A DNA stretch of 64,000 bases from Takakia lepidozioides (GCA_030704615.1 CM060731.1:5394001-5458000), one strand, 5' to 3'. Counted from the stretch's first letter, positions 10,838 through 51,636 are shown. Program-made: numbers and translations. The notes: generated by a model not told the origin, from the sequence alone.

Positions 10838-10893
10838 TCTCTCTCTCTCTCTCTCCCTCTCTCACTCTCTCTCTCTCTCCTCTCTCTCTCTCT
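10838..10893 (+). repeat. (CT)n microsatellite
   Basis: Imperfect CT dinucleotide run. Confidence 0.9.
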
Positions 10894-12362: not shown

Positions 12363-12476
12363 TGTCAAGCTCAAACTTGATACCTGACTTAAACACTTGA
12401 ACTAAATCCAAGTGTTAAATACAAAATAACTAGTTTTTATTCTAGTTAGTTTCACACTGTGTTTATTAACTTGACA
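12363..12476 (-). repeat. Putative short (114-bp) LTR of a related element, with leader 12120-12362
   Basis: TGTCAAG...CTTGACA terminal inverted repeat. LTR plus leader weakly resemble 32357-32620. Confidence 0.5.
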
Positions 12477-12478
12477 GC

Positions 12479-12580
12479 TGTCGTGCGCATACATATCGCT
12501 ACACAACTACATACAACTACATATCAACATCGCGTCCAACCACACCACACATAGATGCACAATAAAGTAAGTCTGCCACA
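12479..12580 (-). repeat. 3' LTR of copy A (102 bp)
   Basis: Starts TGTGG right after the PPT and ends CGACA. A second copy at 17520-17604 ends at the same nucleotide. Confidence 0.8.
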
Positions 12581-12853
12581 ATCGCCCCCCCTAGCTGGTG
12601 GATAGGTCCCTCTAACTCCAGATAGCTACAAGATAAAAAGATATAATGCCAGCCCGTACTAAGTCCTCTATCACTGGCCCTGTTGTACTCAAACTCTGTA
12701 GACCAAGAGGCCGGGTACAAGAGTAGCCCCATCGTTAGTCGCCGTCTTGCAATCTGTGAACTTGAGCCAGGATCTCTCGTGTGTTCAAAAGGTCTCCTAG
12801 AGTAGCTTGGCCTTGCATTTCTTGTTAGCCTCCCATGGTTGTATCCACTCCCA

Positions 12854-14543: not shown

Positions 14544-14576
14544 AACCTGAAAGTCATATTCTTGAAGGATGAGTGC

Positions 14577-15732: not shown

Positions 15733-15980
15733 ATCACTGTATCTATAGGGTCTCCGAAAGATTGGCGTGTAGCCAATTCAATGCGAATCTCTTGACCCTT
15801 CAGTGCTCCTAAGTCCTTCAAACTGAAGGCAAAGCAGTTCTTGTAAGCCCTCAAGAACCGCCGTATACGTCGTCTCTCTCCTCCGGTGACTATAGGTCCA
15901 ACATCAGGCTCCCAGTTGTCCTCCGTGACTGCAACCTTGAGTCCAGCTGGCTTAGAGGTAGAAGACGCGTCTCGTGGTTG

Positions 15981-17235: not shown

Positions 17236-17519
17236 TATGCGGGCATTGCCACATAAGAGGTGTGGTGTCCAATGGTGACAACTGAGGTGGTCTTGGTGCA
17301 ATCACCGCACTCTCCACTTCTCCTGACGGTACGAAGGCCTCTACCCAGGCTTGTTGTACCCGTCCATCAGCAGCCTGCTGCAAATCCTTGCTCGTACCCC
17401 ACAATGGAGTGTGAGCAACCATGGCAGACAACTCCACCGTACCATGCATGTCATCCTGCTCTGCTGAAGGTGGCACATCCTCTGCATGGGCATTGCCTTC
17501 CAGCAACTCTCCAGCAACT

Positions 17520-17604
17520 TCTAGCAGACTACTTTATTGTGCATCTATGTGTGGTGTGGTTTGGACAGCGATGTAGTTGTGTAGCGATATGTATGCGCAC
17601 GACA
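17520..17604 (+). repeat. Second copy of the short LTR, inverted relative to copy A, no TSD
   Basis: Reverse complement matches 12479-12580 apart from a ~17-bp internal indel. Flanks CAACT and TCTTC differ. Confidence 0.85.
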
Positions 17605-19350
17605 TCTTCAACAGTTTCATGCTTCTTTTGCTTTAACTGTTGTAAACTCCCATACACTTCATCCTCAGTTTTGCTTGTCCTGAACCTATTTTGGAACGCT
17701 GTACTAAGGCCATTCCAGGTTAGGAAATGATTATCAGGGAATCTTGCATACCATTCACTTGCTTTCTTGATAAGTGAACAATGAACAGTCTCATCTTGGC
17801 ATCATCGCCATTCTCATTGTTCACAATACACATGTGTTCAAATTGGCTGATGTGTACATCAGGATCCCCTTTCCCTGCATATATTGGAAAATGTGGTTTT
17901 GCCCGTGTTGGAGGTACCTCCATCTGTGGCCCGACACCCTACCCACTGACAGGTGCTGGTCCTCCTGTTGTTGTTGGTCCTTGAGGACCTGTTGTTGTAG
18001 TGGTGGAACTCCCACCGAGTATTGGCCCTTGAGCACTCCCTGCTACTGGCCCATCTATACTTAGAGTATTCCCAGCTCCAGTTGCACTACTTCCCACACT
18101 CCCTGTCCTCCCAGAGCCAGATCCAAGCTACCCGCCTGATCCCCCTGAGCCAACACCTTCGTTGGCCTGTGATTCAAGTGCTCCACTTGATCCAGGTCCA
18201 ACAGGTTGGGATGTCTTGGTTGTAGTCTCAACCTCAACTGTTGGGTCTACTTCTTCATACTCCTCATCTTCCAAATTCTTCTCTCTGTTTTCATCTTCCA
18301 AGTTCTTCTCCTGGTTTTCTTCTTCTTTACTCATGTAACTCAATTGCAATGGTGTTGGAGAGTCTGAACTCTCCGTTGGCTCTGCCACATCTTCCTCTCC
18401 TTCTTTATCTTGTAATTCAGAAGCTGGAGTTCCTGCCTTTGGTGTCCCATGCCAACTCTTATCAAAGATTTCCGTCAAATCTTTTATCAAGGGATGTACC
18501 TCAGATCTCTCCCCTCGTGGCTGATCTTCTTCCTGTACCAAATCCCTTAATCTTTCTTGTAAAGAATAAGAAGGTGTGGCATCCAACTCCGGTTCTTCCG
18601 GTATGGGTGATGTACTCTTTGATCTTAATGGTGTGAAGACAAATGATTTCCCTATGTCTATTCCCCTCTCCCAAAGATATGGATAATTAGCTTTCAAATA
18701 ACTTTCTCTCTTCGCTGAATATCTGTGGAGTCTAGCTTCCCTTTCATCACTCATGTCCCATGTTTTTCTTTAATGAGGTAATAACCAAAACTCTCTTCTA
18801 TAGTATCTCTCATATATGCCCGGGTTTCTTTCCAGCTTCAATGCACCCTTGGCTACACTAGAAGTCTCTGTTACCATATAACCATATGGCAAGCACGTCT
18901 GAAAAGCTGTTCTTGGTATCAGTTTGATCCATAGGATATCCTTAGGAATTCAATTCTTTACCGGTACCAGTTCCTCATGCATATGAGTGTAAACATTCAC
19001 CTTCCGTTCCTCCCAACCTTCAAACTCTACTCGTTTAATGGATAGCAATGCTATCACATAAACCAGTGTTGGTAACCAACTTGCTCTCCCTCTATAGGCC
19101 ACTTGATAAATCTTTATCACAATTCCAAGAACCTCTGGAAGAATTGTTTGGACAATCTTTCTTTCTCAGTTCCACAAGGAATTTGATTCACATCAAATTC
19201 TTTAATTCTCCAACCACCATAATCCCACCAGATGTCTGTCACATCATATGCCATCAGGCTGACAGGCATCTGGTTGTTTTTGATCAGACATTCTTCATGC
19301 TTCATATATGGCCTTACACTACAGCCTACAAGTCAGTTTCATCTAGCAGG
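17605..19350 (-). mobile_element. Decayed gag region of a different gypsy-type element
   Basis: HFPIYAGKGDPDVHISQFEHMC...AKMRLF, then in another frame EWYA...TW..L..AF..RF...LQQLKQKKHETVED (Retrotrans_gag-like). An acidic ORF 18128-18754 lies upstream. Confidence 0.7.
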
Positions 19351-23412: not shown

Positions 23413-23449
<37 letters not shown>

Positions 23450-24447: not shown

Positions 24448-28501
<4,054 letters not shown>

Positions 28502-31620: not shown

Positions 31621-33666
31621 TGAACTTTAATAATACCCCCGCAATTGGTCCCAAACGTCCAATCATCTCATGTGTTGTTGGTACTGCTTCACAATGGGGA
31701 AGTGGGTATGAGTCGGCGTGCATCACGGTGCCATTGCTCAACAAACAGTACAAATTCACGAGTTTGGAATCAACTAAATCAATGCTGCAACTTTGTTAGA
31801 AATATGCTTTCAGTATTGCAATCTACCTCTCTTCCCCGCCTATACTCAGATCTAGACAAAAAAGATAGTCAATTCGAGAAGTCCTTGCAAATGTGCTACG
31901 AGTTTACCGTTTCTTAAATTCATAGTACTGAGATCCTCCAAGTAATTATGCGGGGTTGTCCTTGAAGATAAAGATTTTGTTGTTTTTCTAAGATATCATG
32001 TACATAATCTTAGTATTTGGTTTGCGAATATGATTGAAGAGTTTGCAACGTAGATGGGTTGGTATGGGATATGAGCATTAACCCTACGTAAAACCCGTGC
32101 AGATCTGTGGGTAGGGTTATGATACTTAATATCTCGGACCACGACAAATAACACCTAGCTCGTCTTCAAGCATAACACCCGCGTGACCTAACATCGACCG
32201 GTGAGCTAACAACGTATCCACTGCTCACACCCGGTGGTTAGGGTTGTGATGTTAGCATCTAAGCACCTTAACACAAACATCATTCACACCTCGTGGTTAT
32301 TTGTTACCTCTATTTTCTGTTATCTTTTTTCCGGTGGTCCTGCTTGCCTCGGCGTTTGTCATATTTGTGATTAGTTAGAAATAGTTATTTCTAATTAATT
32401 AGGACATTATATATTTATATTTGTATTTTGTTGGCATTGGGACTTCATTTGGTTTTATGTGCCAAGTGAGGTGACGAACCTCACTTGGGACGTGAGGAGG
32501 TTATCTCCACGTGAGACGTAGGCAGGCTCGTCTTCTTCTAGTCGAGCCTCCCGAGGCCTCTCTCGCCGCCATAGCTAGAGTGGGTGAGGTCTGTATGGTG
32601 GAGTCCTTTAGCAAAGGTACCATTGGCTTGACTTATATAACGTGATAAAGTGGTTTCTCCTCTTTTCACCATTTCCGTATCACTAGAAGAAGACCTGCTT
32701 ACATCTATGAGTGCAAGGTATTAGCATAGTTAGCACTTGTGTATGGAAGAGAGCTTGGTAGATAGCTCTTAAGTTACAAGGTGTTGTAGGGTTTGCAAGA
32801 TGAAAGCCTTGTGGTGTTTATGTACAAGAGGAGGTCTTCAAGGAGAGCCCATTGAGAAGTTTGAGAGCTTGTGAAGAAGCTCTTGTTCTGCAAGTGTTGC
32901 AGGGTTTGAGGAGTTCAAGAAGAGCTCGGGTGTTAAGGGAGCAAGTGGTGCATGTGTAGAGCATGGTTTCAGCTTGTGGGAGTTTTCAACTTCAAGTTTA
33001 TGAGAGCTATGAGTAAAGGTAGACATCTGATTTCTCTTTGAGGCAGAATAGTGTATTTGTAGAGCATGCTTTGAGTTGGGGTTTCAATCCCAAGCTTGGA
33101 AAGAGCATGTCTATGGAAGTGACAAGTGCATGGCTGGATTAGGAGCTCTAAGAGGTGCACTATGGCCATGGAATGAAGCACTGTGATTGCATGCGATGGC
33201 TAGAAGAGGGTATGTCATAGAAAACTCAATAGCTTGTTCTATGCTTGTTTCAATAAGTTCTATAGAGAAACAGCGCTTGTTGTGTGGCAAATAGCTTGCT
33301 CAGGAAATGGTGCTCCTAGGCAGAGAAGAATGAAGTTTTGCTGCGGGAAACATTTTTCGTCAAGTCCAGGGGGTGCAGACACACCTGCGCGAATTAGAGG
33401 TGACGGCTACGGGGGTGGCGGGGAAGGAAACTGTACCCGACGCCTGGGATGGATGTAAACTCGTCAGGGGATTAGAGGCACTCTTGGTGGTCTATTGATG
33501 CTCAAGAAACCAAGAACAGCACCTCTGGTTGCTCCATAGAAGCCATAGCTCGTTGCAGCAATCGCAGAGGCAAAGCGGCGCAAACCCTAGCTAGGGAACG
33601 CGTGGGAACGAATGGGAACGCGTGGGAATATTGCCCCAGAGTTGGGAGCACCACCATTGTCCCATC

Positions 33667-34160
33667 GGATGAACTATTGAGCCAGTGGATGAAAATTGGC
33701 GCTCCTGGATGAAAATCGGTTGCAGTGGATGAAACTGCGCCAGCGGATGAAATCGTGTCAGCGGATAAACTATCGCGCTATCGGATGAAAAATCACGGCG
33801 ACGGATGAAACTGCGTCAGCGGATGAAATCTCGTCAACGGATGAACTATCGCGCTATCGGATGAAAAATCGCGGTGACGGATGAAACTGCATCAGCGGAT
33901 GAACTATCGCGTTATCGGATGAAAAATCGATGCGACGGTTGAAACTGCGCCAGCGAATGAAATCTCGTCAGCAGATGAACTATCGCACTATCAAATGAAG
34001 AATCGCGGCGACGGATGAAAAATTGCGGCGACGGATGAAATATCGCACCAACGGATGAACTATCGCGGCGGATGAAATATCGGACCCGTGGATGAGAAAT
34101 TGCTGTTTTGGATGAGATTTGGTCAGTGACGGATGAAAAATCGACTGACTGTGGATACTT
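33667..34160 (+). repeat. Tandem array of ~25 GGATGAA-core units, 18-20 bp period, CpG-rich, with a ~76-bp higher-order unit
   Basis: Direct reading; e.g. cggatgaaactgcgtcag-cggatgaaatctcgtcaa-cggatgaactatcgcgctat-cggatgaaaaatcgcggtga. Confidence 0.9.
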
Positions 34161-34470
34161 TTGGAGCCTTATGGGGGCTTGTTTGAGGATTATTTGGGGT
34201 CTATTTAGGCCAATATCTAGCAGACATTGGGACCCGTTTGAGGACTATTTGGGGTCTATTAGAGCCAATATCTTGTAGGCTTGTGGAGCTTGCTTGGGGC
34301 TATTTGAAGAACTATTTGGGGTCCTTTGAGGCCAATGTTTTGCAGGCCTGTGGAGCCTTGTGAGGGCTGGTTGAAGGACGATTGGAGGTCTTTGGAGGCC
34401 AATACTTGGCAGATTTGAGGAGCTTCTTAAGGGCTGTTGGGGGACTGTTGGAGGTCCTTGGAGGCCAATT
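34160..34470 (+). repeat. Degenerate tandem repeats (ttggggtc...ggccaatatcttgcagg...)
   Basis: About five diverged copies of roughly 60-70 bp directly upstream of the gag remnant. Confidence 0.7.
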
Positions 34471-36320
34471 CTCGTATGGGATATTGGACAAGGAGCTGAG
34501 GAGAAGGGTGCGGGATGCAACTCTCCTACAAGTGGACCAACCCACCTTAACAAACGTGTTTTTGCTGGCAGAGCGGATAGAGCTCAATATGGTGGAGGAG
34601 CAAGTGGTCATGGTGGGGTTTGGTAAGGAGACACAACGAAGTGGGGCTCCTAGCCAACAACAACCACTACCCCAACGTGCTCAAGGCAACAAGGGGGCTC
34701 AGATGAAGCCCAGGGAAGGACAAAGAGGATCTCAATTGCAGAGGTCACTTCCTTCATTCTCAGGCCAACAACAGTCGGGTGTGACATGTTGGGATTGTGG
34801 AGGACCCCATGTTAAGAGAGATTGCCCGGAGAGATGCAAAGGGCCGACACAGGCACAACCTACACAACTACAGTGTGGGCATTGTGGCAAGTATGGACAT
34901 GAAGAGACCCATTGTTATGACTTGCATCCTGAGCTACGGCCAGGCTAGTTCCAAGGGAACAATGGTGGCCGAGGACGAGGCAATGTAGTCCAGAGAGGTA
35001 GAGGAGGCAGAGGTCGTGGTGGAGGTCGTAACCAAAACCAAGGAGCACAAGGTCAAGGTCAAGGTCATGAGCAAGGCATGGTGGATATGCTTGCCCAGCT
35101 AGAGCAACGTCTTGCTGCCATGGCCACTACTAATGTGGCGTCAGCTCCAAGGCCTGAGGTTCAAGCTCCACCTGCACAACCTCCTATGCCTAGGGACGAC
35201 CAGATTGGTATGGGCTTCATGTGTGGAGCCGCACTTGCTGGACCATTGCATGTGGACTCTGCAGCTGCTGTCACTCGAGCAGCAACGCGTGCTCCTGAGC
35301 CAAGAGGACCAGATGTGGATTTTGATCCACAAAGGAGGGAAGCAAGTCGACAGACAAGGCTTCCACAGTCTTTCACATTGGCTGAGACAGTGCCAACTAC
35401 GCCATCGATGGTACCCGCTCACCCAAGTGTGTCAGAGGTAGAACCACGAGTATCAGTGGGGAGAGTTGGTGTGGCTCGGGAAATGCCAGTGGGTGATGCT
35501 GCAAAGCAGGGTGTAGCCAGTACATTGTTGGGGGCGGCTACGGTGATTTGCCAAGCTCCATTGTTTTCTGCGATGATCATTGCAATGCCGGGGATTCGGC
35601 CAGCTGTTGTGTTCAGACTAGCAGCTAGACTTTGTGAGAGTGGTGATGCATCGGCACTATCTGCGGGGATAACGGATAATGTGCAGTGCATGGATGTCAT
35701 GGACTCAAGGGTGAAGACAGCCACAGCTGCACCATGGCAAGCGGCAACTGCAAGGTTGCAAGAGTTGTCAACTAGACCAGCCATTGAGCGTAGTATGATG
35801 ACTCATGGGGTAGTCCTGGGGGACAATCAGGATGGTGTGTTTCAGTTGGGTGGCCCAGCCGGGAAGAGGTATAGGCTACTATGGGTCTTGTTGGACTCGG
35901 GAGCACAACCATTGATGTTGGGAAGAACAGCAATTGCAGGCTTGGGCCGTACAGAGGCGGATTTGGAGCCTTATCCTTTCCAAATTCAAACATCTTTGGG
36001 TGGTTCAGAGAAGGCACGAGGGATTACACGCCATGAATTCTTCATTCGATTGCAGCCAGATCATCCTACGGATGGCTCAGTCATGAGAGCTAAAGCCATT
36101 GTTACGGACGCGATGTCATATGATGTGCTTGTTGGTGGGGCTGTGTTATACCCCATGGGCTTTACTTTGGACTTTTGGGAGGAAACGACATCCTATAGGC
36201 CGGAATGGCAGTCAGGAGATGGCCGACGTGCACTGCTCTCAGTGCAGTTTATTGGGAATGTAGCGGTGGATCATAGGAACATGATGCCCACATTGGCTGC
36301 ATTTTCAGGGGCGGTGAGCT
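34470..36320 (+). pseudogene. Gag C-terminus plus aspartic protease, copy B
   Basis: CWDCGGPHVKRDC, CGHCGKYGHEETHC, RGRGGRGRGG, LLDSGA...YDVLVG. ORFs 34382-34948 and 35078-36457 are in the same frame, separated by a single TAG. Confidence 0.88.
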
Positions 36321-36553
36321 CTTGGAGGGCAATAGCCATGCATGTGATAGGCCATCACCTGATGAGGACAAACAATTGGCATATAAGGCTGATTTGCTTC
36401 CTTATGTGCCTGTGCATATTCCACTGTGGGGTACGGTTGGGAATTTGCATCGAGTAGCAGGTGAATGTGTGCACCAAACATGGCATGAGGCCTTTCCATT
36501 GATGAGTGAGGGGAGCTCAGTGACATTACCTGGACCTCCTGAGTTAGCTCCCT

Positions 36554-37879
36554 TTGGACACGGTGCCCATTATCTGGCAACCACCTGACACAGGGATTTG
36601 TTTGCTAGACCTGTTTGGAGGCATGAGCACTAGGCTTGCAGGAGTGTTGCAAGCAGGGATTAAAGTACACAAGTACTTGTATGTGGAGAAGGATGAGATC
36701 GCTCGACGTATTTCTATGTGTCACATCGCCTTGCTCACACACCGGTATCCTGAGTTGTTGCCTCTCTCAGCAATTCAAGGGTATCAAAATGCCTTGCCAG
36801 CAGACATTACCTTGCTGGGGGCGGATGATTTGGACCGGTATGGTTCCATTGACTTGGTGATAGCTGGATGGCCTTGCCAATGACACTCTCCCGCAGGTCA
36901 TGGGAATGGCTTGCATGATGCACGATCGCATTTGTTTTGGGAGATGTTGCGAGTGTTGCGGGACTTGCAGACGAAACAAGTGCAACCTCTAGGCTATATC
37001 TTGGAGAATGTTCTTCTTATGGGGGATTCTCGGGCCAGGGTAATGGCCAGTGTGCATCAGGTGCGGTCTTGGATTGGATCGGTGGTGTTATTGGATACAG
37101 CAGCGATGGGATCACACGCGCATCGACCTCGATTGTGGTGGACCAATCTTGCACCACCAAAGCTACTTAAGAGAGCATACGATTCCATTCAACGGCCACC
37201 CAATCTCACGGTTGAAGGCATTTTGGACCAAGGGAGGCAACCACAGAGAGTGCGACATGATGATCGTCCACCTCTAGCAGTGGTCAATCGAGTAGGGCAG
37301 CCACGTGCGGCCTTGCCTACGCTCATGAGCTTTCCCTCGTCTCATGCTTTCCAAGACAATGGTCCTAGGTTGATTTGGGACAGTGTGCTACAGCAATTGG
37401 TGGGGCCCAATGCGGATGAACGAGAGCGGGCAATGGGATTTGCCACCGGCACTACAAATGTGCCAGCTCTGTCAGCGGCATCACGCCGCCAAGTGTTGGG
37501 TCAAGCAATGGATTTAAATTGCTTGACATGGATAATTGGCTTGTGCATGGCTGAACAACGGAGATTGCAAGCATTGATGGCTACTTCTACACTCCCATTG
37601 GATGGTGCATCCTCCCTGCCAACCGGGACGGTTGAGGCAGTGAGTGGGGGCGAGCACAGGATCGTGGGTTGCAAACACCCATGGAAGATGTGGGATGAGA
37701 TGCGCAAAGAGATAGTCATTGGATCTCTCAAGCAGCAGTATGAGGAGTGGGAAGAGCCATGGACTGAGGATCAGTTGGAGGCCAAGGTGGCCAAGGTTTT
37801 TGAAGAGGTTGAGAATATTTCTTGCTCAGAGGATGTTCTCAAGGTGGCTATGGCGGAGCAACTGGAGGCTACGCCATAA
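36554..37879 (+). pseudogene. C5 cytosine methyltransferase domain (DNMT3-like), copy B
   Basis: LDLFGG, YVEKD, ADI, IDLVIAGWPCQ(stop at 36881-36883)HS, ILENV, AHRPRLWWTNL, ERERAMGF, RRQVLGQAMD. Both ORF halves are in one frame. Confidence 0.92.
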
Positions 37880-38077
37880 TCAGATTGGGCGGACAAGGCC
37901 CAAGAGGTTGTTATCTAGCAACCAAAGGATTCGTCTCTTACCTCCAAGCCTGGTGTACCCAAGGTTGCAGTCACTAAGGACAATTGGGAACCAGATGTTG
38001 GACCTACAGTCACCGGAGGAGAGAGATGGAGGATCCAGCGATTTCTAAGGGCTTATAGAAATTGCTTTGCCTTCGGT

Positions 38078-39248
38078 TTGAAGGATTTGGGAAGTTTGAA
38101 GGGTCAGGAGATTCGTATTGATTTGGCAAGTGACACGCCAATCTTTCGAAGGCCCTACCAGTATAGTGACATGGAGAGGTCATTGATCCAGTCACGGACT
38201 ATGGAGTTGTTCGAAGCTGGATTGGTGGAGTTGTCAGGCGGGGAGTATGCCTCGGCAACGGTGATGCCAGCTAAGAAGGATATCTATGGCAATTGGACAG
38301 AAAGAATGATGTGTGGGGACTATCGTCCTATGAACCATCAGACTAAGTCCGATAGATATGCCATGCCAACTCCAGAGGAGATCTTTGATGCCATTGGGCA
38401 TGCAAAAGTGTTTAGCACATTGGACTTGCGATCCGGTTACCACCAGTTGCCAATCAAAGAGGCTGACAAGCAAAAGACGGCATTCTGGGGGATTGACCAA
38501 CATGGGAAGGATTGTTTGTATCAATGGCGGTTCTTACCGTTTGGGTTGAAAAATGCTCTTGCAGAGTTTCAGAGGGTCATGGATAGGATTCTCGCAGGGC
38601 TAGACTTCGCCCGGTTCTACATTGATGATATCATCGTCTTTAGTGCTACGGTTGAGGAGCATGAGAGACACCTTCAGGTGGTGTTTGAGCGCTAGCGCAC
38701 AGGTTGAAACTGCACCCCGGAAAGTGCAAGTTCTTTCACAATCAGATTGAGTATCTGGGCCTCATGATATACCCTGGAGGATTGGGTGTTCAACAGACAA
38801 AGGTGGAGGCCATTGCATGCATTCCACGCCCCATGGATGTGAGCAGAGTTCGTGCTTTCATGGGATTGACAAACTACTATCGACGGTTTGTCAAGGGATT
38901 TAGCAACATTGCAAAGGCTCTTACCAAGTTGACCAAGGTGGGTCAGGAGTGGCAGTGGGAGGAGGAGCAGGAGGAAGCCTTTGAGGAACTCAAGACTCGA
39001 TTGACTTCTGCACCTATTCTGAGGCGGCCTTTCCAACTATATACGGATTGGAGTATGCTGGGGATTGGAGCAGTGCTCACACAGGTGGATGATGAAGGAA
39101 GAGAGTTTGAAGTGGCATATGCTAGTCGCTCGAACAATGATGCCGAGGCGAAGTATAGTTCTTATAAAGGGGAGTGTCTAGCTGCGGTATGGGCAGTGGC
39201 ACATTTCAGATGCTACCTCTATGGCAATCTCTTCACCCTTGTCACGGA
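38078..39248 (+). pseudogene. Gypsy RT and N-terminal RNase H, copy B
   Basis: MCGDYR, LDLRSGYHQ, LPFGLKNA, YIDD, TDWS. Ends at the insertion site in LVTD. Confidence 0.95.
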
Positions 39249-40078
39249 CCCGGGGGGTGCACTCCTCATTAAATGTACCAGCCACGTGCGTGCACAGGAG
39301 GGGGTATTTTAAACCCCCCCATGTACAACATTATACATACAGAGGGGGGTTTAAAACACCTTAAATATAATTTTACAGGAGGGGGTTGTTGAGTTTTTAG
39401 GGATAGTGTAGTGGTAAGAATGGCGATTCCGCCGCAATGCATCCTGGGATCGAATCATGGAATCGTCGTTTTGTATGTTTGTTTTTTTTTTTTTTTTCGC
39501 TCCACGATCTTTCTCCCCTGACCTCCCGCGGCTTTCTCTTTTCTTTCTCCTCCTCTCCCGCGTTCGCCTTCCCTTCCGCGGGCTTTCTCTTTTTCCTCCT
39601 CTCCTCTCCCCTCCTCTCCACAGGGCATGGTAGGACAATGTGGTGAGGGCACCAGAATGTGGTGAGGGCACTGACTTGGGAGAAGGTTTGAGGTTGTGAT
39701 GTATGTAGAGGGCAGGAATCGAAGGGGATGAAGTAAGTGCGCGGGAATGTGGGGCAGGCCTGGGCTAATCGGTGATGATATGCGGGTGTGGTGGCGGATT
39801 GTTGTGCAGCAATGACAGGAGGACATGGGCATCAAGATTCCCAGTCATCAGAGGTAATGAGCACATTAGGCCTATTTTCTTTCCTAATAATGATTGGCGT
39901 GACACAATGGTTGTACTCACTGTATCAGGCCTATTCTCATCCTTATTGAATCCAAACAGCCAGAGGGACAAGATGCCCCTAAGTGTACAGAACCTGAACG
40001 TCCTGAATCTGAAGGATTTGGTACTCAAGAGTTTACACAAGACGAGCAAAATCTACACATGGGGTAACTGTCCCCCCT

Positions 40079-42088
40079 TTGCAGAACGGTTGGGCGTCCA
40101 GGAGCAATCCCAAGCTACCTAGACGACAAACAATTCACATGCAAAGGGCTGGCTTGCGGCTGGCCATTTTCAACTTCTCAGGGCTTACTAACCAAAGGAA
40201 ACAACTCGAAGTGGGACAAGTCCTTCGGACTAATGATATTCATATCTGTGCTGGGCAAGAAACATGGGAAACTTCGGATAAACTGGTTGGAGATGTCAAT
40301 GGTTATAAATGGGCAGGTAGAATGTGTACTCTCAAGGAAGCCTCTGCCAAACGCGGTCAAAAAGGGGTTGGATTCTTTGTCCGTGATTTCTTGTTTGATA
40401 ATTGTGAAATTATCAAAAAGGGTTTGAGGTACGAACATAGTATCTGGCTAAAACTGAATCTGAAGGGTGGCATGAGTACGAAGGACCTCTTTGTGGGTTG
40501 TGTTTACATGCCCACAGAGGGGACCCTTAGTGTTGACGCAGACAAAGCCTTCGAAGATGTAAAGCTGGACTGTGCTTCGTTCCTTGCCAAAGGTCAGGTA
40601 GTGCTATTGGGTGACTTCAATGCCCGGGTGGGCAAAGGGCTCCATCAGGACGATATCCCATGATAGAGGCCCTAGTTCTCCTCTTTAACCTTATCTGGAA
40701 GACTGAAATGATCCCCTTTTGCTGGCGACAGGGGGTCATTGTCAGTCTATACAAGAAGGGTGACAGAGAAGAACCGGGGAACTACCGTGGCATCACACTC
40801 AGGAGTTGATTAATTGCGCGAAGCGATACTTTGATCTTTGGGGGCTAGAGGCTAATGTCAGCAAATGTGCAGTGGTAGCATTCAACGACAGAGGAGAGGG
40901 AGGAAGTGATCTTAAGTGGCAGTGGGGTAGCCAAGAGATCCCGGTCCTCCCTTCCTACACTTACCTGGGCGTTGAGTTTTCCTCCAATTGTAATTGGGAT
41001 GCACATATCCGGAAAGTTGTTCGAACTGGCAAGGGCAAAGCTCTGGGGCTCACTAAAATTTTTCACTGCAGAGGGGTCATCTCTGAGGTTAAGAAAACCA
41101 TGCTTTGTCGCGTTATTAGACCTGCCTTGGAGTACGGATCTGCTATATGGGTTGATAACTCCAACCAGGCTAAGTCTCTAGAATCCATTCAAGTGGGGGT
41201 GCTTAAGGAGTGTATGTCAGCATGCTCCAAAACAGCCAATGTGGCTGTTCGGGGTGAGTTTGGCATTCCATCCTTAAGCTCCCGACGAGATGAATTCAAG
41301 GTCAGATGGTGGGGTCAGCTGCAACATATGCCCAACACCATATATCCTAAGTTGATTGACTCTATATCTTGGAAACAGGACCGCCCTGTCAAACAGGCTA
41401 AGTCCTGGCAGAAGAGAGTAGAAAAGATTCTCAAGGACCTGGACCTGGATCCGCAAGTCTTGACCCTGCTGGATAAATCTGCCTTAGAGGCTGTAGTGTC
41501 TGAGGCCATGTCTGTTGCCATGAGATTGTCTGATGAAAATGAAGTTAGGCAGAGAACTTCCCTGAACTTGTTTCCAGTCAGTGACATGGGGGTGGACATC
41601 TTGGATGACCTCAAGGGTCTACCCACTCTCGGCACTAGACTGAAATTTAAACTCAGGGCAAGAAGCCTACCTTTGAACAGCAAACAGAAGCAGAGAGGAA
41701 AGGGAGAGTGCAATTGTCCGTTGTGTGGGCAATCTGAAGACAGTATTCATTTTCTGATACGCTGTCCGGGTTCTCTCACCAAAGAGAGGCTCTCTTCAAT
41801 TCTATCAAGGGAATTGTGCCTGTACCCCTGTTTACCAACTTTGAAAGTCTCGAGGCTGAGCCAAAAGCCCAGGTCCTCTTGAGGCCTAGTTTTTGGGCAA
41901 ATCACACACAACAGATTGATGCTTGTGTGAAGGGTTTTCTAGAGGATATCTGGAAAACCCGGATTAATTCCTTATACGATGGTAAGTCTTACTACCAACG
42001 TCAGCCCTGTTCCTTTTGTTCCCACTGAAACTGGGCGTGGGGTCAATGGCCACAAGGCTACGGCAAACAACGTCTTATGAGTACAATC
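40079..42088 (+). mobile_element. LINE family 2 (RTE/RTEX-like), internally deleted, with intact 3' end
   Basis: APE (FNFSGL, GQETW, LLGDFNARVG), jump to LYKKGD...NYRGITL, jump to post-YADD RT thumb (NVSKC, YTYLGV, RPALEYG) and a C-terminal Cys/His motif (CPLC...HFLIRC). Confidence 0.85.
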
Positions 42089-42599
42089 TCATCCTTATCA
42101 TCCCTCGCCTTTTGGAAAATTCCAGCCATAATTGAAGGGCAATTGGTTGTTGTACTTAACTGCATGAATGTTCCCCTTTCTGTTGGAATGAGCCGCACGT
42201 CCTTTCCATGCTGACATACCCTTTCTTCTTCCTGCAGGATCCTTTGCCCAGCCCTGTTATTTCTATCATTTGTGCCATCCTCTTGGTGTTTCCACAGCCT
42301 CCCCTCATTGCCAGTGAAGTGTTTCTTTCTCTTCCCTTTGTCTTTAAAGACACTCCAACTGTTAGCTGCAGTACCCTTCGCTGATTTCTTATTGCCTTTG
42401 ACCTCATGTATGTTTTCAATCATGTTTGAAGGGTGATCACTTGCTGCCATATGCATGACTGTGTCCTTGACTGCTTCTCTTGTCTCAGTATGATGTTTAA
42501 TTGTTGTCATGTCAGGCTGTGCTCACCTGCACCGTGGTGTCTTCAAATGGATCAATTTTTCAGACACGGTCTTGCCAACTGAATGATGCAGGTTCACTT

Positions 42600-43228
42600 G
42601 GGAGAGTGCACTCCCCCTTTCCTCTCTGCTTCTGTTTCATGTTCAAAGGTAGGCTTCCTTCCCTGAGTTTAAATTTCAGTCTAGTGCCGAGAGTGGGTGG
42701 ACCCTTGAGGTCATCCAAGATGTCCTCCCCCATGTCACTGACTAGAAACAAGTTCAGGGAAGTTTTATGCCTAACTTCATTTTCATCAGACAATCTCATG
42801 GCAATCATGGCTTTGGACACTACAGCCTCTAAGTCTGATTTATCCAGCAGGGTCAAGACTTGCGGATCCAGGTCCAGGTCCTTGAGAATCTCTTATACTC
42901 TGGCCTTGGGAAAACACCTTTTGATCTCAGTCCAGAAAGTGGTCAGAGGTACCAATATCAGTTCTGTCGATCAACACATTGGCACACTGGGGGAACAAAT
43001 TTTTGTCCATTATGATATAGTCCACAATGGAACGTTCCCCAGTTTGGGATTTCTCACGAGTCCACTGCACTTGGTCACCTCTTGTCTTGTTAATCAAGGT
43101 CAAAAGCTGAAGCTCTTCCAGACAGTTAATTAACCGTCTGCCATTAGAATTCAGCTCGTCCTCACCAGAAGACCCAATGATATCGTCCTGATGGAGCCCT
43201 TTGCCCACTTGGGCATTGAAGTCACCCT
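42600..43228 (-). mobile_element. Second internally deleted fragment of LINE family 2, inverted
   Basis: GDFNAQVGKGLHQDD...IVDYI...SDH joined to sequence matching 41415-41712. Confidence 0.85.
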
Positions 43229-43763
43229 ACAATAGCACCACAGAGATGAAGAGAAGCTTTGGAATGAGACACTTTTCTGACCCCAGTCAATGGTGGGACA
43301 ATGTGGGTCGGATGGTCAACTGGAAACAGCAGCGGCAACAGCGCAATTGATAAAGCAAGGCACTGCTGATGAAAGGTACCTTCTTCAACGTATTTCAGCC
43401 TGAGGGCACCTTCTGGTTTGACCTGTTTCAGCCTGTTTTTCCCTCTCATCAGACTCAGCCCTGAAGCATATGTATTGAATTCTGTAAGTTAGCTCGTTGG
43501 GTGGATCTGCGGTGCTCTGGAGTGACTTTGCAAGTTGCTGCCGAGGTGGTAGCATGACAGTACCTAAAAAAAGATAATAGATAGAACAAGGGACTGCTAA
43601 TGAAGGTACCTTCTTCAAACAGGCTAATGAAGGTGTTCACTATGCAAGGTGTCACATACAAATGCATCTGAGCAGAAATTATAGGTGATGAGCTTGTCTC
43701 AGCAAAATTTCATTTCATTTCCATGGGGGGGGTAGTGTCCTTTCAGCCAAGCAAGAAGAGAGG

Positions 43764-46700
43764 ATGGTTCTAAAAGGGGATACTGTACACATTAAGATTT
43801 TAGACCAAAATGATGGGGACCAAGGATTGAAAAGACCTCTATCTTCCAGTGGTTCTACGATCTTGCATGAGGACAGACCAGGCAAGGACCCGGCACCAGT
43901 GTCTACCAAGATGAGGATGGACCCTGATACACCCTTTGCTGGCGATGGTGGAAATGAAGACCATGCACATGAGCATGCACTTCAGCAAAGATCTGGTAGA
44001 TTGTGCAATACGTTGGCTACATCCAACGATATTCAAAAATGGCAGAAAGAGATTAGAGCCGTTGAAAGGAAAATCTCTGCAGAAGGACGATGTGACAAGT
44101 TTGAGCTGATGACAAAGGACCAACAAGGACAAGCAATGTTCCACATATGGTGTGTTGAGTGTGAGGATGTTTATGCACGGTCTGGGAAAAACAAACCATA
44201 TGATGCATGTGCAAACTTTATGAGATCTCATTTGAGGAGTGAGGGGGCATCGCATAGCCTATGAGAGGCGTCATGGGAAGGGTTCATCACAATGTGTCAT
44301 CAGCCCTGTAAATGCAGATGAAGCATTAGACGCAAAGAAGAACAGGGTGAAGGAGGCATTAGAGGAAGTCGCTCAGTTTTGTGAGGACAATCCTGGAAAC
44401 AGATTTGAGATTGTGGAAGCCACAATTGGAGACTATTCGCAGTTGGGTTCCATAAGGATTAGGTGCCCACTGGATTCGAAGTGGCTACTCTTGTTTCCAA
44501 GGACAGGTTCTTTGCAATCTTCTTTGACAGAGCATGTGAAAGGAAAAACTCATGTCAATGCAGAGATTTGCCAGAAGGTTGGAAGTAGTGAAGGACCTTG
44601 CAAAAAGAGAGGAAGGCCTCCAAAGCCTATGATTGCCAAAGATGTAAAGCAACGGGATCTAAGCTCTTTCTTGGTCAGTCAACCTGTGTTGTCGTCCCCA
44701 CCACTTGACAATCCAATTGTGGCATCAACAATGGGAGCATCCTCGTCACAAACTCCATACGCTTGTGTTGACGCTGCCCAACGGGGAGATCTGATCGAGG
44801 ATTGACAATTACAGCAAAGGTCCCAATGCAACAAAGGAAGAGACAGTTTGTGTTGGGGCCTATGGGATGAATGGTGGGAGTACAACCAGCAGAGAATAAG
44901 TCTGAAACCATTCCTTCAAGATAGCAAGGGAGGAAAGAAGTGGTATGTCGAGCCGTTGACAAATGCAACCATCACTCTAAACAATCAAGAGCATAAGGTT
45001 GTTGGTACATTTCGGCACGCGGATTGTTTTAGAGTGTCATTGGATGGGGAGCCATTTCCAAACTTGAGATGTTCACCATGTTCTTCCATTCCCTTGGAAA
45101 ATGACTTCAGAATGAGGGTATATAGAGAAAGAGGTGCCATGGAATGTAGAGGGGAGAGAGATACTGGCAAGGGAAGAAGGTTGTCATATCTTGGAAATGC
45201 GGAGATTGTCAAACAAGTTTACAAAAACAGACAGGAGTTGAGGCAGTTGAGGTTCAAATTGTGGGAGGCCAGGACCAAAGTGGCATCATTGTCTGTGCGA
45301 TGTAGGAGTTTGAAGGAGTCTGGGATTGAGGCAATTGAAAGAGGAGATGTTCTCAAATTTTGTCGTGATATTGTTGATGCACATAGGAGGGGGGATTTTG
45401 AAGGAAAAGAAAGTTTGTGGGATTTTCTTGTTGATATGGGCAAGAATATTGACAGGTCTCCACAAGGGAAGAGGTATGGTACTAGCACAAAAACAATGTT
45501 TGAGACTGTGCAGCTTTGGGGGGTCCGAGATTGCATCATTTTTTGGCTTCAAATGTGGGGGGTCCTTCTATTGATACTACAAGACGGTCTTTGAGGAAAG
45601 GTTTGAAGTATAGAACGGGAGAAACAGATGATATATTTCAGCATGTGGCTGGAATTTACAGAGATGTGATGGAATATGCAAATATTCCATTGGGAAGCAT
45701 CCCAGTGATGGTGGCCGAAGATGAAACTGTTGTGAAGCAATTGGTACGTTGGATTGCTAGGGATGACACCCTTCTCGGGTTTTGTGGGCTTCAAGACAAC
45801 CATGTATGTATTTCAAATTTTGTGGTGCAAGTGGGAGAAGGGGAATCAGGGTACCAACATATTGTGGAGGCATTCAAAAACAATGTGGTTGCCCATTATG
45901 CTAGAGTGTTGATAGCAAATCCTCTACATGTACAGTTACCTCGATTGGTATTGGTAATCCAGCTCACTTGCAATAGATTTGACAACAATTTTGTGAGATC
46001 ACAATGGGAAGTGGTGAGACAGTTGTGGGACAAATATGTGAGGGACGTGGTTGGGCCTATAATTGGGCATGCTTCAGACGGAGATAGTAGGAGGAGAAAA
46101 GTGATGTTAGAAGATTATGCCAATGGGGCTGGAAATAGATTTTGCATCCCTTGGGAAGGATGGTTGTTTACAGGTCGAGTGTGCAACGGGGGAGATATAT
46201 ACGGACTCCATGATCAGGACTTCATCCACAATGGGAAAAAATTGGTAAATCCCTTGGACAGTGCATCACGGACTTTGGTGTTGGGTGATGAGGTTGCTAC
46301 ATTGAATCATGTGTTATTGGTCTACCATTCATTTTCAGTGGACAAGCATGGACTTCGGAATGTGATATCAAAAGAGAAGATCGACAGAATTGGGCAGCAG
46401 CTCAACGACTGGCATCTCGGAAGGTGCAAGCTTATTTGAGGGAGTTACAATCAACTGTGAATCATCGAAGAGAGAGGACCAAAGGTACTGAAATTTACCT
46501 ATACATCATTTCATGCTACATCGACATTTTTTTGTCTCCTCACATGTCATTGTGTGAGAGGGTACAATCTGCTGCGAAGGTATCATTTTTTTCAGATTGT
46601 GGAAGTTATGGCTATTCCAGCACGAGGTGTATAATCTGAAATCCTTCTTCATTAGCAGGGAAGCATACTTGGATTTACAAATTTCATGCCACTACGTGGT

Positions 46701-47976
46701 TCTACTTATCAAATTGGTCAAGGATAAGTTTAATCATGTGCAAGTTCCTTTGAGCCTTGTTGGTTCAGATGTGTGTGATATATTCTTCAGCAAAGTGGGA
46801 GTTATGTCACGGAATGAGAGGACATATGACGGGTGTGATTTGATTGAGAGTGCGGGAGCATTAACACGCATATCCGAGTTCGAGGCGAATCCAAAAGGAC
46901 CCAAGTTCTCAAGAGCTCACAAGAAACAAGAACACATATGGTCTTCTTTGGAGAAGAAGCCAGGTATCCCCCTTGCTGATTTGTCCGACTTTTCTACTGT
47001 CCAATCGGATGATTGCATTGTGGAGGCTTTGAAAACTGGATTTCTAGAAGCGCAACTTTTATGCCATAAACTTGGGATGAAACCAAACAAAACAACAAAC
47101 TTGGATTGGTGGAATGAGCCATGGACAATTGAGAGACAAATGGAGGTCGAGCTATTCAAAAGCATGGAAGAGGAGGGTGATGATGTCAATGCCATAGATT
47201 CTATTTGTCCTCTTAATGCAGACACACATATTCAAAATGAGGTTGTGGAAGATGAATTGGTGTGCGGGCCTTCGAATTCAATGGAGGATGTTTTGAGCCA
47301 ACCTTTGGATGATCATGCGGAAGAGGTACTTGTTCAAAGTGAATTGAGACATACTCTGGATGCTGTCATTGATGAGTTTGAACAAGAGAAAGATGGATCG
47401 AAGGCAGTGGTTCCATTTGTCAAAGTAGACGGGAAGACCATATTCAAAAGCACTTTGGTTAGCCAACTCAATGGCAACCCTACTCTATCCAAGGATAGAT
47501 TGACACGAGTAAGAAGTGCATCGATGTTGTTTTGCCGAGAAAACAAACCAACTACCAGCAACAAAGCCACGAGCTTGGGATTGGGTTCGGATTGTGCTGT
47601 ATTTTTTGTTGATGGGGAGACTGCGATCCAAACTACAAACATGAAAGGTAGACCAGGGAAAACCTGCAGAGGAACAACCAAAGGCACTTGGTATTTGGGC
47701 AGGGTTCAAAGAATGCGGAAGAAAATCAATAAGCGGTTTGTAGAATGTAGGGATTCTGTTGATTTATTGGAGCGTCATTCTCATATGGAGATTGGATTAG
47801 CATGGTACCAAAAAATTCGAGGAGGGGTCTATACGTACGATTTGACGGATAACATGATGGTTGATTTGGATTCCATTATCGCGTTAGCATGTTTAAAGTA
47901 CAATGTCAAGTCAAACACATATGTTCTTGATGCAAATGACCGAAAAGTCTTTGACAACTTTATCAAAGGCAAATAA
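43764..47976 (+). pseudogene. P-element-like DDE transposase (six ORF pieces, ~1300-1400 aa if joined)
   Basis: N-terminal Zn-finger-like motifs and an AT-hook (KKRGRPPK). Core GGPSIDT, VAEDET, GHASDGD, DQDFIHNGKKLVNPL (DxxH) and GSDVCDIFFSKVG, in the order and spacing of P/THAP9-type catalytic motifs. Confidence 0.7.
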
Positions 47977-48286
47977 TTTTTTTAATTAATTTGTTAGATT
48001 TTATTATGTTTTAAATGAATAAATTCGATATAATATAAAAACATACATATACATATTGGAGGGTTATTTTTAATGATGAAAAATGAGAATATACATACAT
48101 AAGGGGGTACTTTTCGAAAATTGTAAATTTTTGTATATTTACAGGAGGGGATTTTATAATCTTCAAAAAGTATGTACAGAGGGGATATAAATTATCCAAG
48201 GACCCATATACAGGGGTTTTTTTATTAGGCGACGAACGCACGTAATACGCACAGTTTATAAAGAGTGCACCCCCCGGGGTCACGGA

Positions 48287-50043
48287 TCACCAACCATTGA
48301 AGTGGTTGATGGAGTCAGACAAGCTTACAATGAAGCTTGCACGGTGGCCACTTATGCTTCAAGAGTACGACTTCCAGGTGGTGCATCGAGCCGGTATTGC
48401 CAATCGGGATGCAGATGGATTGAGTTATAATCCATGCACGAGCGAGCATGATGATACTGGAGCTCGGTGGCATGGTGAGACGGATGAGGAGATGGTGCCA
48501 GGATGGCATACATCGGTCTTTTTGTGCATTCTAGCAATGGGCTCAAGTTGGTTCATCTCATGTGATTGGTCATGTAGATAGCGTGCATGACGATCCAGAG
48601 ACTAGTGAGGAGTTTGGTGGTGCTAAGGATGTACATGAAGATGCAGCAGTGTTGGCCTACCTTCGTACTGGAGAGACAGTAGCCAGTGTGACTGCTAAGG
48701 AGAGAGATCGGATCCTACAACGAGCCAAGAGGTTCAAGTGGGAGGGGACTCACCTACTCCGGGTATGGGAGGATGGACGAGTGATGATTGTGCCTCATCC
48801 AACACAACGAGCGCGATTGGTACGCCATGCCCATGAGGAGTTGGGACATTTTGGGGTGCGGCGCACTCATAGTTTGCTGCAAGGGCAGTATTGATGGGGG
48901 GACATGCACACGGATGTGCAATAGTTAGTGGCAAGGTGCATGGTGTGTGATAGAGTGCGGGCTTCTTTCAACGCCCCTACTCCATAATTGCATCCTTTAC
49001 CCATTATGGGTTTGGGCTATCGTTGGAGTCTTGACTTTGCAGGCCCATTGTCATTGACGATTCGTCATAACAAGTATGTGTTGGTGATGGTGAAACACTT
49101 CTCCAAATGGATTGAACTGGTCGTATTGCCTGACAAGGCAAGTGATGGGGCTGCATATGCATTCTTAGATCGAGTGCTTAGCCATTTTGGTGCTCCAGCC
49201 GAGGTACTCACAGACCAGGGGAGAGAGTTCTTGGGGGAGTTTCAGGCTTTGTGTGAGCAAGCCTTGATAGATCACCGCACTACTTCTTGGGATCATCCCG
49301 AGGCTGATGGCTTGGCGGAAAGAGTTGTTCAGACAGTCAAGAGAGGTTTGCGCAAGTACGGTTTGCAGAAGGGACACCTAGGAGATTGGGACCTTCAGCT
49401 GCCTTGGCTAGTTATGGGCTATAGGTTCAGCAAACAAGCTTCACTTTCCTCCTTCTCACCTTACTTTCTTCTCTTCGGCCGAGAGCCGGATTTGCCTGCA
49501 TCTATTCGCAGGGAGGCTGCAGTAGTTCTCAACCTTGATGATCCGGATGTGTGGACACAAGCATGTGCCCAGCGGGCAGAGTTGTTCAAGAGAGTCATGC
49601 CTATGGCTTTTGAGAACCTTGCTATTGCCCAACATCGAGACACATTGAGGTACGCCACTATACGTGGAGGGGGATATCGGCCAAGTGTTCGACGTTTCCA
49701 CCCTGGGGACTATGTGTATTTGCAGCAGACAGCGACTACGACCTTAGATGTCACAACAGGACATGTGATTCTAAGGGTCAGGGAGGTGTTGCCTTCAGGA
49801 GTGTTGATTCTGGAGGGTCGAGATGACATGGTATGGAAGGACCATGTGCGCAATTGTGCGCCATGTCACCTTCCACATGTGGATGGGAGGATAGATCTCA
49901 ACCTTGCAGTGGTACCTGCGGGGTTGCGTTGCATGTTATGTGGGCATGCTGGTGGCGCCGCAACCATGTTGGTGTGTGACAAATGCTCAAGGGGGTGGCA
50001 CATGGGATGCTTGACACCGCCACGTTTGCACCCGACCTCTTGA
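48287..50043 (+). pseudogene. RNase H C-terminus, integrase and PHD finger, copy B
   Basis: HQPLKWL...ADGLS, HEELGHFG...CMVC, WSLDFAGP, TDQGREF, GLAERVVQT, CMLC...LVCDKCSRGWHMGCLTPP. Confidence 0.93.
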
Positions 50044-51636
50044 TCTATCGACTTTAGGTGTTGGGACTTGTGCGATTGAAGACCAAGCGATGATCTTATT
50101 GGGGTGGATACTTGCAAGCTATCCGGTGTTAGAGGGACCTAATCACCAGCTAGGACTTCAACAATTACCATGAACTCATGTGCTTTGCTCCGTTTCTCTT
50201 CAATATACTTCATAAGAGAGTATAAGGAAAATATATAAATATCAAATGGTGGGGCTTGTGTTTTTGAGGCAGATAACCGGTATGTGTAAAAAAAATTTGG
50301 GAAAGTAAATTGTGAAAAAGATGTGGGAGAAAAATGCTCGCTTTGAGAAAACTGGGATGCGTAGTAACATGGTAAATTTGATTTTTTAGCCTGATCAGTT
50401 AATAATCTAATGTCTATTAATGGGGTTTTGTATGGACAACATGACATGCAAATAGCTCTTATTTTTTAGCAATTTTGGTGAATGAGTTTGTGGGATGTAC
50501 ATAGGGGGAATAATTCCACTCCACCATGCTGTAGTTCTCCCACACATATCTTACAATAGAAACTATATCAATATGTTTACATCTATATTACTCACAATAT
50601 TATTTATAATAACTACATTCTGATATACATGCTCTCTAAATATGATTCAAAACAGACTATGCTCCACAATCCTATCACATCTACCTTTTCACTGAGCACC
50701 TAATACAATACCATTCGTAGGTTCTGACGGTTGGGGTATTCCATGGTTTCCTGTATGGCAACATTCTTCTCTGTCGATCAACCTTTGCCCGTAAGCCACA
50801 TTCTGTTTCTACTTATCAATGTCAAACAAAGGCTGCCATATTTTACATGCCAATTTTCTCCTACATTATCATCTACTCTTTATTACAAACACGACACACA
50901 CCACATCTCACCAATCTATAAATAACTACCAGTACATCCAAATAAAACATTCATCCCATTCCCAAAAAGTCATCATGCCTACAAAAATTGTATTTCGGCG
51001 TTGATCACCCGTTGGCAGGATTGTGATGCTCTTGCTTGCTGGCTATAAGGTAGAAACATCTCAAATGGACCATTTAAGAAATGAGTGTAGTTTCAGGTGT
51101 GCAGTGTCGTCATATATATATTTCTGATGTGGGCACAAATAAATGAAATTTAATGAAAAAAAAGAAAAAAAAGAATCCGAATTATTTTAAAATATTGGTG
51201 AATATTCAATGTGAAATCATAGAATAATCCTTGAATGGACCAGTAGGGGGTACTATTTTGAACAGCAAGTGTACTCTGTCTAGAGGCAAAAAGTATGCGT
51301 CCTCTTTCACTTTACTGTTTAAACAAATAGTAACATGGACCATGTCATTCAACTAACATAATTATTTACTGACCTTAAAATAACCTCCCACTCCTAGAAA
51401 ATTGAGCTCAAGGTTGGATGAAACTCAATCCTAGATCGTTGATCTAGATGAAACTCAATCGTGATCATTGATCACGAAATGCGATCCCCTCTCATGCATG
51501 TTTGGATTCATTCTTCCTGTCTGGACTCATTCATGACTTGATACTTCTCTCAAAATGCGCGCCAGTGGATATTAATTTGTCCATTAAGTGGTATTATCAT
51601 GATCATGTATGAGTTAAAAGGGTTCATTGCAATTAC

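Follow-up and report, generated by a model that had tools for sequence, protein, structure and literature searches.

The closest described relative of the element treated here is KnitGypsy-Dnmt3 of the alga Klebsormidium nitens, a Ty3/gypsy retrotransposon reported to combine DIRS-like repeats with a DNMT3-like domain that lacks introns, is unpermuted and evolves under purifying selection (PMC5890265), features which recur in the present family. SymbioDIRS-Dnmt3, a DIRS-borne DNMT3 which according to the same paper methylates CG de novo in yeast, and the EpiLTRs (bioRxiv 10.64898/2026.05.21.726589) are likewise retrotransposons with a cytosine methyltransferase; the DNA methyltransferases (DNMTs) of EpiLTRs are given there as sister to DNMT4 and accompanied by an adenine methylase and a chromodomain, whereas the present family has a DDE integrase and a PHD finger. 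Here we describe two copies, A and B, of a methyltransferase-bearing Ty3/gypsy element in a land plant, Takakia lepidozioides. They lie in a stretch of 64,000 nucleotides (GCA_030704615.1 CM060731.1:5394001-5458000), called the window below, from whose first letter all positions are counted. DNMT3-bearing Ty3/gypsy elements as a kind are already known (PMC5890265); what goes beyond the published Klebsormidium element is a readthrough-type junction, integrated ends that run from one repeat (A) to another (B), and a second position of the domain.

The reading that we favour, with a probability of roughly 0.6, is that the two copies belong to an old Ty3/gypsy family of mosses and liverworts in which the first open reading frame (ORF1) ends in a DNMT3-type enzyme, pol would be made by readthrough, and the enzyme would methylate the element's own new DNA in the particle. 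In intact relatives ORF1 encodes Gag, a zinc knuckle, the protease and the DNMT, a single UAG-CAR-YY(A) follows, and an in-frame ORF2 encodes reverse transcriptase (RT), RNase H, integrase and a PHD finger. One such relative, the metagenome locus L055, has an ORF1 of 1,369 amino acids (Gag, protease, PF00145), then TAG CAG TTA, then an ORF2 of 1,047 amino acids in the same phase with RT, RNase H, integrase and PHD. The parts of copy B are as follows.

32357..32670, plus strand: likely left terminal repeat A1, beginning TGTCA, end approximate (alignment to copy A's A2)
33649..34469, plus strand: tandem arrays of GGATGAAA units of about 20 nt and of 67-nt units, between A1 and the gag remnant
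34415..35821, plus strand: C-terminal part of gag with two zinc knuckles, and linker (tblastn with Marchantia P0003 from residue 178; translation)
35822..36253, plus strand: aspartic protease, LLDSGA (sequence reading; tblastn match to relatives)
36593..37591, plus strand: DNMT3-like C5 cytosine methyltransferase (PF00145 7.7e-12; best PDB match, for P0001, DNMT3A structures at 4.4e-12; motif table)
37916..37924, plus strand: ORF1/ORF2 junction TAG-CAA-CCA, a CARYYA readthrough-type signal
37919..39248, plus strand: RT and the first part of RNase H (RVT_1 2e-20; RT_RNaseH_2 1.4e-29)
39249..48278, no strand given: DNA-transposon-like insertion in RNase H, 9,030 bp (16-bp inverted ends; 8-bp target duplication)
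48279..49919, plus strand: end of RNase H, linker and integrase with zinc finger and DDE core (RT_RNaseH, Integrase_H2C2, rve 3.5e-13)
49920..50021, plus strand: PHD finger, C-terminal part deleted (PF00628 1.6e-05, profile positions 1-32 of 47; the match to copy A stops at 50021)
50019..50154, plus strand: remnant of the 3' untranslated region, stopping where the polypurine tract begins (aligned with the 3' region of copy A)

An earlier note on this DNA, made by a model from the sequence alone, had proposed a Ty3/gypsy element with the order gag-protease-methyltransferase-RT-RNase H-integrase-PHD, and this order is borne out by Pfam, sequence reading and tblastn. Pfam searches of the copy B frames matched RVT_1, RT_RNaseH, Integrase_H2C2, rve and PHD, and PF00145 was matched above its curated cut-off with the stop in copy B read as X, so that all four profiles for which that note had suggested a search (PF00145, RVT_1, rve, PHD) were found. 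The motifs it listed (DLFGG, PCQ, ENV, AHRPRLWWTNL, ERERAMGF, RRQVLG) are present in unpermuted order. Its span of 34470..50043 as one element does not hold, because the segment 39249-48278 is an overlooked insertion and 58% of that span is therefore foreign to the element. The start of copy B is likely near 32357, not 34470: the stretch there aligns to the A2 repeat of copy A with a score of 70, whereas 60 shuffles reached no more than 46 and six other stretches of the window scored 28-35. The tandem arrays at 33649..34469, over which contig depth is below that of the coding part, may be the element's own leader or a nested repeat. The N-terminal part of gag, about half of it, is missing by tblastn, and no match to the right repeat B was found downstream of the 3' remnant. 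The protease has no Pfam match in copy B itself; the homologous region of L055 matches Asp_protease_2 below the cut-off.

Copy B is a dead Ty3/gypsy copy and cannot be active. Stops stand at 34946 (in gag), 36881 (directly 3' of the catalytic PCQ), 37877, 48892, 48922 and 48985, a stretch at about 36316-36558 is off frame, and frameshifts occur near 38693 and 48535-48553. Its methyltransferase is broken at motifs I and IV, with Arg at the last Gly position of motif I, and its RNase H is split at 39248/48279, where copy A carries the empty site.

TAG-CAA-CCA stands between methyltransferase and RT in both window copies. For the junction set, 76 records reach the end of the domain, 64 were aligned, and 51 were left after removal of duplicates of one insertion. 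A stop was found at the homologous site in 49 of the 51 (37 TAG, 12 TAA; the other two TAC), whereas the authors of KnitGypsy-Dnmt3 put the DNMT, RT and RNase H of that element in a single ORF (PMC5890265). CARYY lies directly 3' of the junction codon in 48 cases and the full CARYYA in 8; the corresponding figures for 550 other in-frame stops, used as control, are 3 and 0. All six subfamily groups have TAG-CAR-YY, and five have the full TAG-CARYYA. SIRE1 shows a related in-frame stop followed by CAR-YYA, and Tca2, described as gag-UGA-pol, a related in-frame-stop arrangement. CARYYA is reported as a readthrough signal of plant viruses with about 10% readthrough in vivo for tobacco mosaic virus (PMC4132726, PMC2754532), where the in-frame stop is likewise followed by CAR-YYA; here, by contrast, the signal lies between a Gag-protease-DNMT frame and RT and is known from sequence alone. 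The pol of this family is very probably made by UAG readthrough. Because the in-frame UAG-CAR-YY(A) parts the methyltransferase from RT, we assign the domain in this clade to the end of ORF1 (Gag-protease-DNMT), with Gag-protease and not with Pol; the single polyprotein ORF that the earlier note had drawn around it gives way to two frames parted by the conserved stop at 37916. Other relatives (P0311, P0284, P0289) have a continuous ORF through methyltransferase and RT.

By profile and fold comparison, the domain itself stands nearer to DNMT3 than to the DRM, DNMT1, DNMT2 and bacterial enzymes. With a profile of 42 homologs searched against PDB, DNMT3A came first (6e-23), then DNMT3C and DNMT3B, and lower ranks were taken by DRM-type enzymes (2e-9 to 6e-8), bacterial enzymes (4e-7) and DNMT2 (3e-5). 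The natural stop-free domain of locus L006 was predicted to fold with a pLDDT of 90, and Foldseek with this model gave DNMT3A as best match (3.8e-20, TM 0.71/0.84), all 32 matches listed belonging to the DNMT3 family; these ranks uphold the earlier assignment as DNMT3-like rather than DRM-like. The domain shares fold, motif order and catalytic residues with host DNMT3 (human DNMT3A/B/C structures; Physcomitrium DNMT3), but differs in its identity of about 22%, in being without PWWP or ADD, and in being embedded in a retroelement. The catalytic Cys is kept in 91 of the 93 homologs that cover the position, the Glu of ENV in 110 of 115, and the two arginines of motif VIII in 110 of 125 and 113 of 123; motif II was read by eye only, and conservation of the remaining motifs I-X was judged at family level. 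The methyltransferase is probably an active enzyme. The 60 best PDB matches of the family's PHD are of the CHD4/PHF21A/KDM5-PHD1/UHRF1/AIRE type, fingers which prefer H3K4me0.

Two protein searches gave 36 and 103 relatives. Those named were, respectively, Marchantia (14 and 10), Sphagnum (1 and 3) and Closterium (1 and 2), with further records from Calypogeia (5), Riccia (1) and Monoraphidium (1) and one labelled as a bacterial metagenome-assembled genome (MAG); no vascular plant was named among the 36 and 103. The MAG record, P0069, is labelled a cytosine methyltransferase, and its C-terminal residues equal the translation of locus L058; it is likely plant or algal element DNA in a bacterial bin. 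A metagenome scan yielded 128 related stretches, of which 80 were kept as loci (the L numbers), and the methyltransferase holds the same position in copy A, in most of these 80 and in the named liverwort, moss and algal proteins. In run X1, 21,157 contigs fell on 7 kb of copy B, and the depth over the methyltransferase fell among the values seen for the protease region (summed over contigs, 81,064-193,251 in the methyltransferase bins, which is not a copy number); the family is therefore highly repeated in the host. In two presumed-RNA runs parts of protease and RT were covered by contigs but 36978-37445 was not, which says nothing on expression.

An exhaustive protein search gave 626 clusters at 50% identity with E up to 1e-30; no relative was found in the viral collection. 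In 141 new representatives among the best 150, the domain lay after RT/RNase H or directly before the integrase in 88, after the protease or before RT in 13, and alone in 40. Ten representatives were looked up, including K. nitens GAQ93235.1 (protease-methyltransferase), two Closterium records and one Scenedesmus pol with the RT-RNase H-side order. The K. nitens record (P0279) has the order zinc knuckle-protease-methyltransferase and matched the profile at 1.6e-86; it may be one of the published copies. Other relatives, chlorophyte records among them, carry the domain between RNase H and integrase. Trees were made with FastTree from element sequences and two bacterial-type outgroups only. Those with 64 rows recover the protease-side group with support 1.00 by both methyltransferase and RT, and the distances correlate at 0.67 (midpoint root); in one with 51 rows both window copies group with Marchantia, Riccia, Calypogeia and Sphagnum at 1.0, deeper nodes being weak (0.5-0.92). 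This grouping makes a bryophyte host likely; a search with an exon of the window's intron-bearing carboxypeptidase gene gave a single weak angiosperm match (44%). The domain is a family feature and not a one-off capture, an outcome that the earlier note had said would count against it, being shared with copy A and with records of Marchantia, Riccia, Calypogeia, Sphagnum, Closterium, Klebsormidium and Scenedesmus.

Searched against PDB, the ORF2 of a relative matches Ty3-G Gag-Pol best (4.4e-98). The ends of the element are of an unusual kind. Two direct long terminal repeats (LTRs) are absent: in integrated relatives the left end is repeat A (TGTC...) and the right end repeat B (...GACA), with a 4-bp duplication of the target, and longer copies have the form A1...B1-A2-B2. 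In the Sphagnum-like family, repeat A (TGTCATG) opens the element at 17 distinct left ends, and at none of them does B precede it; 21 distinct right ends lie at repeat B, about 117 bp 3' of the polypurine tract, with CACGACA or a variant as the last letters. Among nine loci with both ends the duplication is exact in six, has one mismatch in two and is absent in one. In relatives the polypurine tract precedes B1. The terminus tally merged L045 with L006, and long forms were counted separately. The A1 end was located in nine of ten loci, and in these nine no TGG start, as looked for in a tRNA primer-binding site, stands directly 3' of A1; no tRNA comparison was run. Locus L045 is a complete long form A1...B1-A2-B2 with a target duplication, and the B1/A2 junction CACGACA-NN-TGTC is found in L045, L006, L055, L061 and window copy A, NN being GC in three of the five. 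In the DIRS layout, as given in the review file of PMC5890265, A1 and A2 flank the ORFs and two B repeats lie around A2; L045 has this split-repeat arrangement, copy A has it in inverted form, and L006, L055 and L061 have B1-A2. We found no description of short A...B copies with 4-bp duplications in the available text of PMC5890265, and the PHD finger has no occurrence in its main text. Copy A consists of the following parts.

12860..17523, minus strand: linker, methyltransferase, TAG CAA CCA, RT, RNase H, integrase and complete PHD, also decayed
12110..12595, minus strand: right end, with polypurine tract, B1, CA-GC-TG junction, A2 and start of B2
17524..17608, plus strand: remainder of the B2 repeat, ending CACGACA, in its original orientation (internal inversion)
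11811..12080, plus strand: N-terminus of gag, beyond the inversion (tblastn 50-52% to residues 2-90 of P0002/P0003)

Copies A and B lie in opposite orientations in the window and are two diverged copies of one element, with DNA identities of 69% in the methyltransferase, 79% in RT-RNase H and 82% in the integrase; an open frame of copy A matches PF00145 at 3.4e-11. Copy A is a long form with an internal inversion. Its A1 was not found upstream (alignment score 29; shuffles up to 36). A stretch of about 7 bp occurs at both junctions of the inversion (11811-17608), and the copy sits in the gag of another element (17532-18769, Retrotrans_gag 7e-9). A rearrangement similar in kind is seen at L012 (6107-6222) and L013 (6117-6232), where A1 has largely given way to a B repeat in inverted orientation with 3' region.

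The simplest reading of these ends is that B plus A would work as an LTR in reverse transcription and that the integrase would cut an internal palindrome. The likeness is to foamy virus, in which a Ty3-related integrase is reported to open the palindromic LTR-LTR circle junction (PMC1180852); in the present family, however, the junction lies between dissimilar repeats B and A, and cleavage is inferred from integrated ends only. We give integrase cleavage at the palindromic B/A junction an even chance. In L045, 18 extra bases (10838-10855) stand between A2 and B2, and the start of B2 relative to the polypurine tract coincides with that of B1; these bases may record a circle junction.

Selection on the methyltransferase was estimated pairwise by NG86 as the ratio of nonsynonymous to synonymous substitution (dN/dS). 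The ratio is 0.10 [0.05-0.15] for copy A versus copy B, 0.10-0.20 in those seven of nine between-subfamily pairs that had usable intervals, and 0.12 in the young intact pair L055/L058, at an unsaturated dS of 0.26; RT gave 0.04-0.10. In 56 copies decay is mainly from C to T at CG (0.22) and CHG (0.25), with 0.07 at CHH and 0.02 at A/T, as expected from host methylation. The observed/expected ratio of CpG is about 0.5, like that of neighbouring elements.

In the life cycle that we envisage, the methyltransferase would be made at the level of Gag, since CARYYA readthrough is of the order of 10%: with about a tenth of ribosomes reading through, the enzyme would roughly match Gag in amount and clearly exceed RT. 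Inside the particle the element's protease would set it free, and this predicted excess over RT favours action on packaged complementary DNA (cDNA). There 5-methylcytosine would be added to double-stranded cDNA before integration, so new copies would arrive marked and host maintenance enzymes would preserve the marks. In cDNA that is circular or bears LTRs, the integrase would then cut the palindromic CA-GC-TG where B meets A, and the PHD finger would anchor the integrase to nucleosomes without H3K4 methylation. A wider form of this reading is tentative, and we think it rather doubtful as a whole: that a single lineage of Ty3/gypsy elements, found across green plants from chlorophytes through to mosses and liverworts, retains a functional DNMT3 together with a PHD while the methyltransferase moved between two positions, and that its land-plant copies load capsid-level enzyme by readthrough, methylate their cDNA and integrate via the B/A junction without terminal LTRs.

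Several observations weigh against the favoured reading. The KnitGypsy-Dnmt3 domain gave no methylation in yeast, a result its authors called inconclusive; human DNMT3B failed too (PMC5890265). Of the 51 junctions, 44 come from one Sphagnum-like family, mostly with CAACCC and thus not the full CARYYA, and 12 of the 76 records could not be aligned there. Recombination of B1 with B2 once an element is inserted could also yield the short A...B copies. No special signature of self-methylation was found in CpG depletion or C-to-T decay, the pattern being host-type. Most dS values between subfamilies are near saturation, and for the methyltransferase all eight pairs taken inside young or dead families have a dN/dS of 0.44-1.02, above the RT value in all five comparable within-family pairs. 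None of the three refuting outcomes named in the earlier note (no DNA methylase match, family members without the domain, dN/dS near 1 across copies) occurred, and between subfamilies the values are those of purifying selection. The within-family ratios fit long conservation followed by decay after insertion, and also recent relaxation.

Much of the same evidence bears on where, and whether, the enzyme acts on DNA. An active methyltransferase could instead work once in the nucleus, either at the target site or in trans on host chromatin, aided by the PHD as animal DNMT3 is by its ADD. The co-occurrence of methyltransferase and PHD in both architectures, a PHD class regarded as a reader of unmethylated H3K4, and relatives of the order RT-RNase H-methyltransferase-integrase-PHD, in which the methyltransferase adjoins the integrase, would suit such a role; but in this clade the readthrough stop leaves the domain with Gag and well away from integrase and PHD, and the K. 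nitens methylome is described as ordinary and plant-like in PMC5890265, and we consider this role unlikely. Somewhat less probable again is that the domain is kept not for DNA methylation but for another task, such as RNA methylation or the binding of nucleic acid in the particle, or that it was once needed and is now dispensable in recent land-plant families. The inactivity of the algal homolog in yeast (PMC5890265), the within-family dN/dS above that of RT, and production in excess like a structural protein, if readthrough holds, point that way; against it, the catalytic Cys, Glu and Arg are among the best-kept positions, PDB ranks DNMT3 far above DNMT2 (6e-23 versus 3e-5), and the young intact pair L055/L058 has its dN/dS of 0.12. 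The rearranged and interrupted state of copy B would suit the single capture of part of a host DNMT3, an insertion nested in the element or a chimera of the assembly, yet these have next to no chance: they are ruled out by the shared position in copy A, most of the 80 metagenome loci and the named liverwort, moss and algal proteins, by a contig depth within the protease-region range, and by methyltransferase and RT trees that recover the same group.

If the wider reading holds, new insertions would be born silenced, and the family would be a DDE-integrase retrotransposon with a DIRS-like life cycle, overlooked by LTR finders. DIRS elements themselves use a tyrosine recombinase. Given its A...B ends, this abundant family is predicted to be missed or wrongly annotated by standard LTR finders. 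Methyltransferase-bearing retrotransposons now extend from one alga to land plants and likely, given the 626 clusters, to all green lineages. Many copies in Marchantia polymorpha are filed as hypothetical proteins (Marchantia made up 14 of the 36 matches in one search), some bryophyte DNMT3 gene counts are predicted to be inflated by the family, and Marchantia, with its methylation mutants, lets a transposon's gain from its own DNMT be tested in a plant. The earlier note knew of no land-plant description, and we likewise found none for the family in a literature search outside which most subscription journals and Repbase fell; the supplements or trees of two later papers, whose text says 'streptophytes' for such elements, might include bryophyte copies. 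The main text of the REXdb paper on plant lineages (Phygy, Selgy, Tcn1, OTA) mentions neither PHD nor methyltransferase, and no description of the readthrough signal or of the second domain position in such elements was found in the literature.

The insertion at 39249-48278 in copy B has inverted ends that begin CCCGGG..., and its motifs may resemble those of P-element-like DDE transposases; its long ORFs (43692-47973, those at 44236-47973 included) gave no significant Pfam or PDB match. Inside it, at about 40013-43241, lies a fragment of a long interspersed element (LINE) with an endonuclease (Exo_endo_phos match) followed by the post-RT region, the RT core being missing, and with inverted duplicated pieces at 41415-41712/42607-42901 and 40598-40657/43179-43241. 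Elsewhere in the window, 35-2967 and 3649-5093 hold a minus-strand LINE (endonuclease, RT) followed by a foldback element with inverted arms of about 650 bp, and the piece at 4299-4459 also resembles the LINE end at 41945-42089. A decayed chromovirus-type Ty3/gypsy element occupies 5208-8940 (gag with DUF4939, integrase, SH3, chromodomain), and 9160-9870 is an array of 51-53-bp units with an internal palindrome, GGTGGTCGCA...TGCGACCACC. An element resembling a miniature inverted-repeat transposable element, with inverted arms of about 400 bp, lies at 23203-24397. A multi-exon host gene at 55100-62000 (plus strand) had no Pfam match in the two frames tested and presumably encodes a SERAC1-type protein, and an intron-rich host gene at 24450-28500 (minus strand) is serine carboxypeptidase-like (Peptidase_S10).

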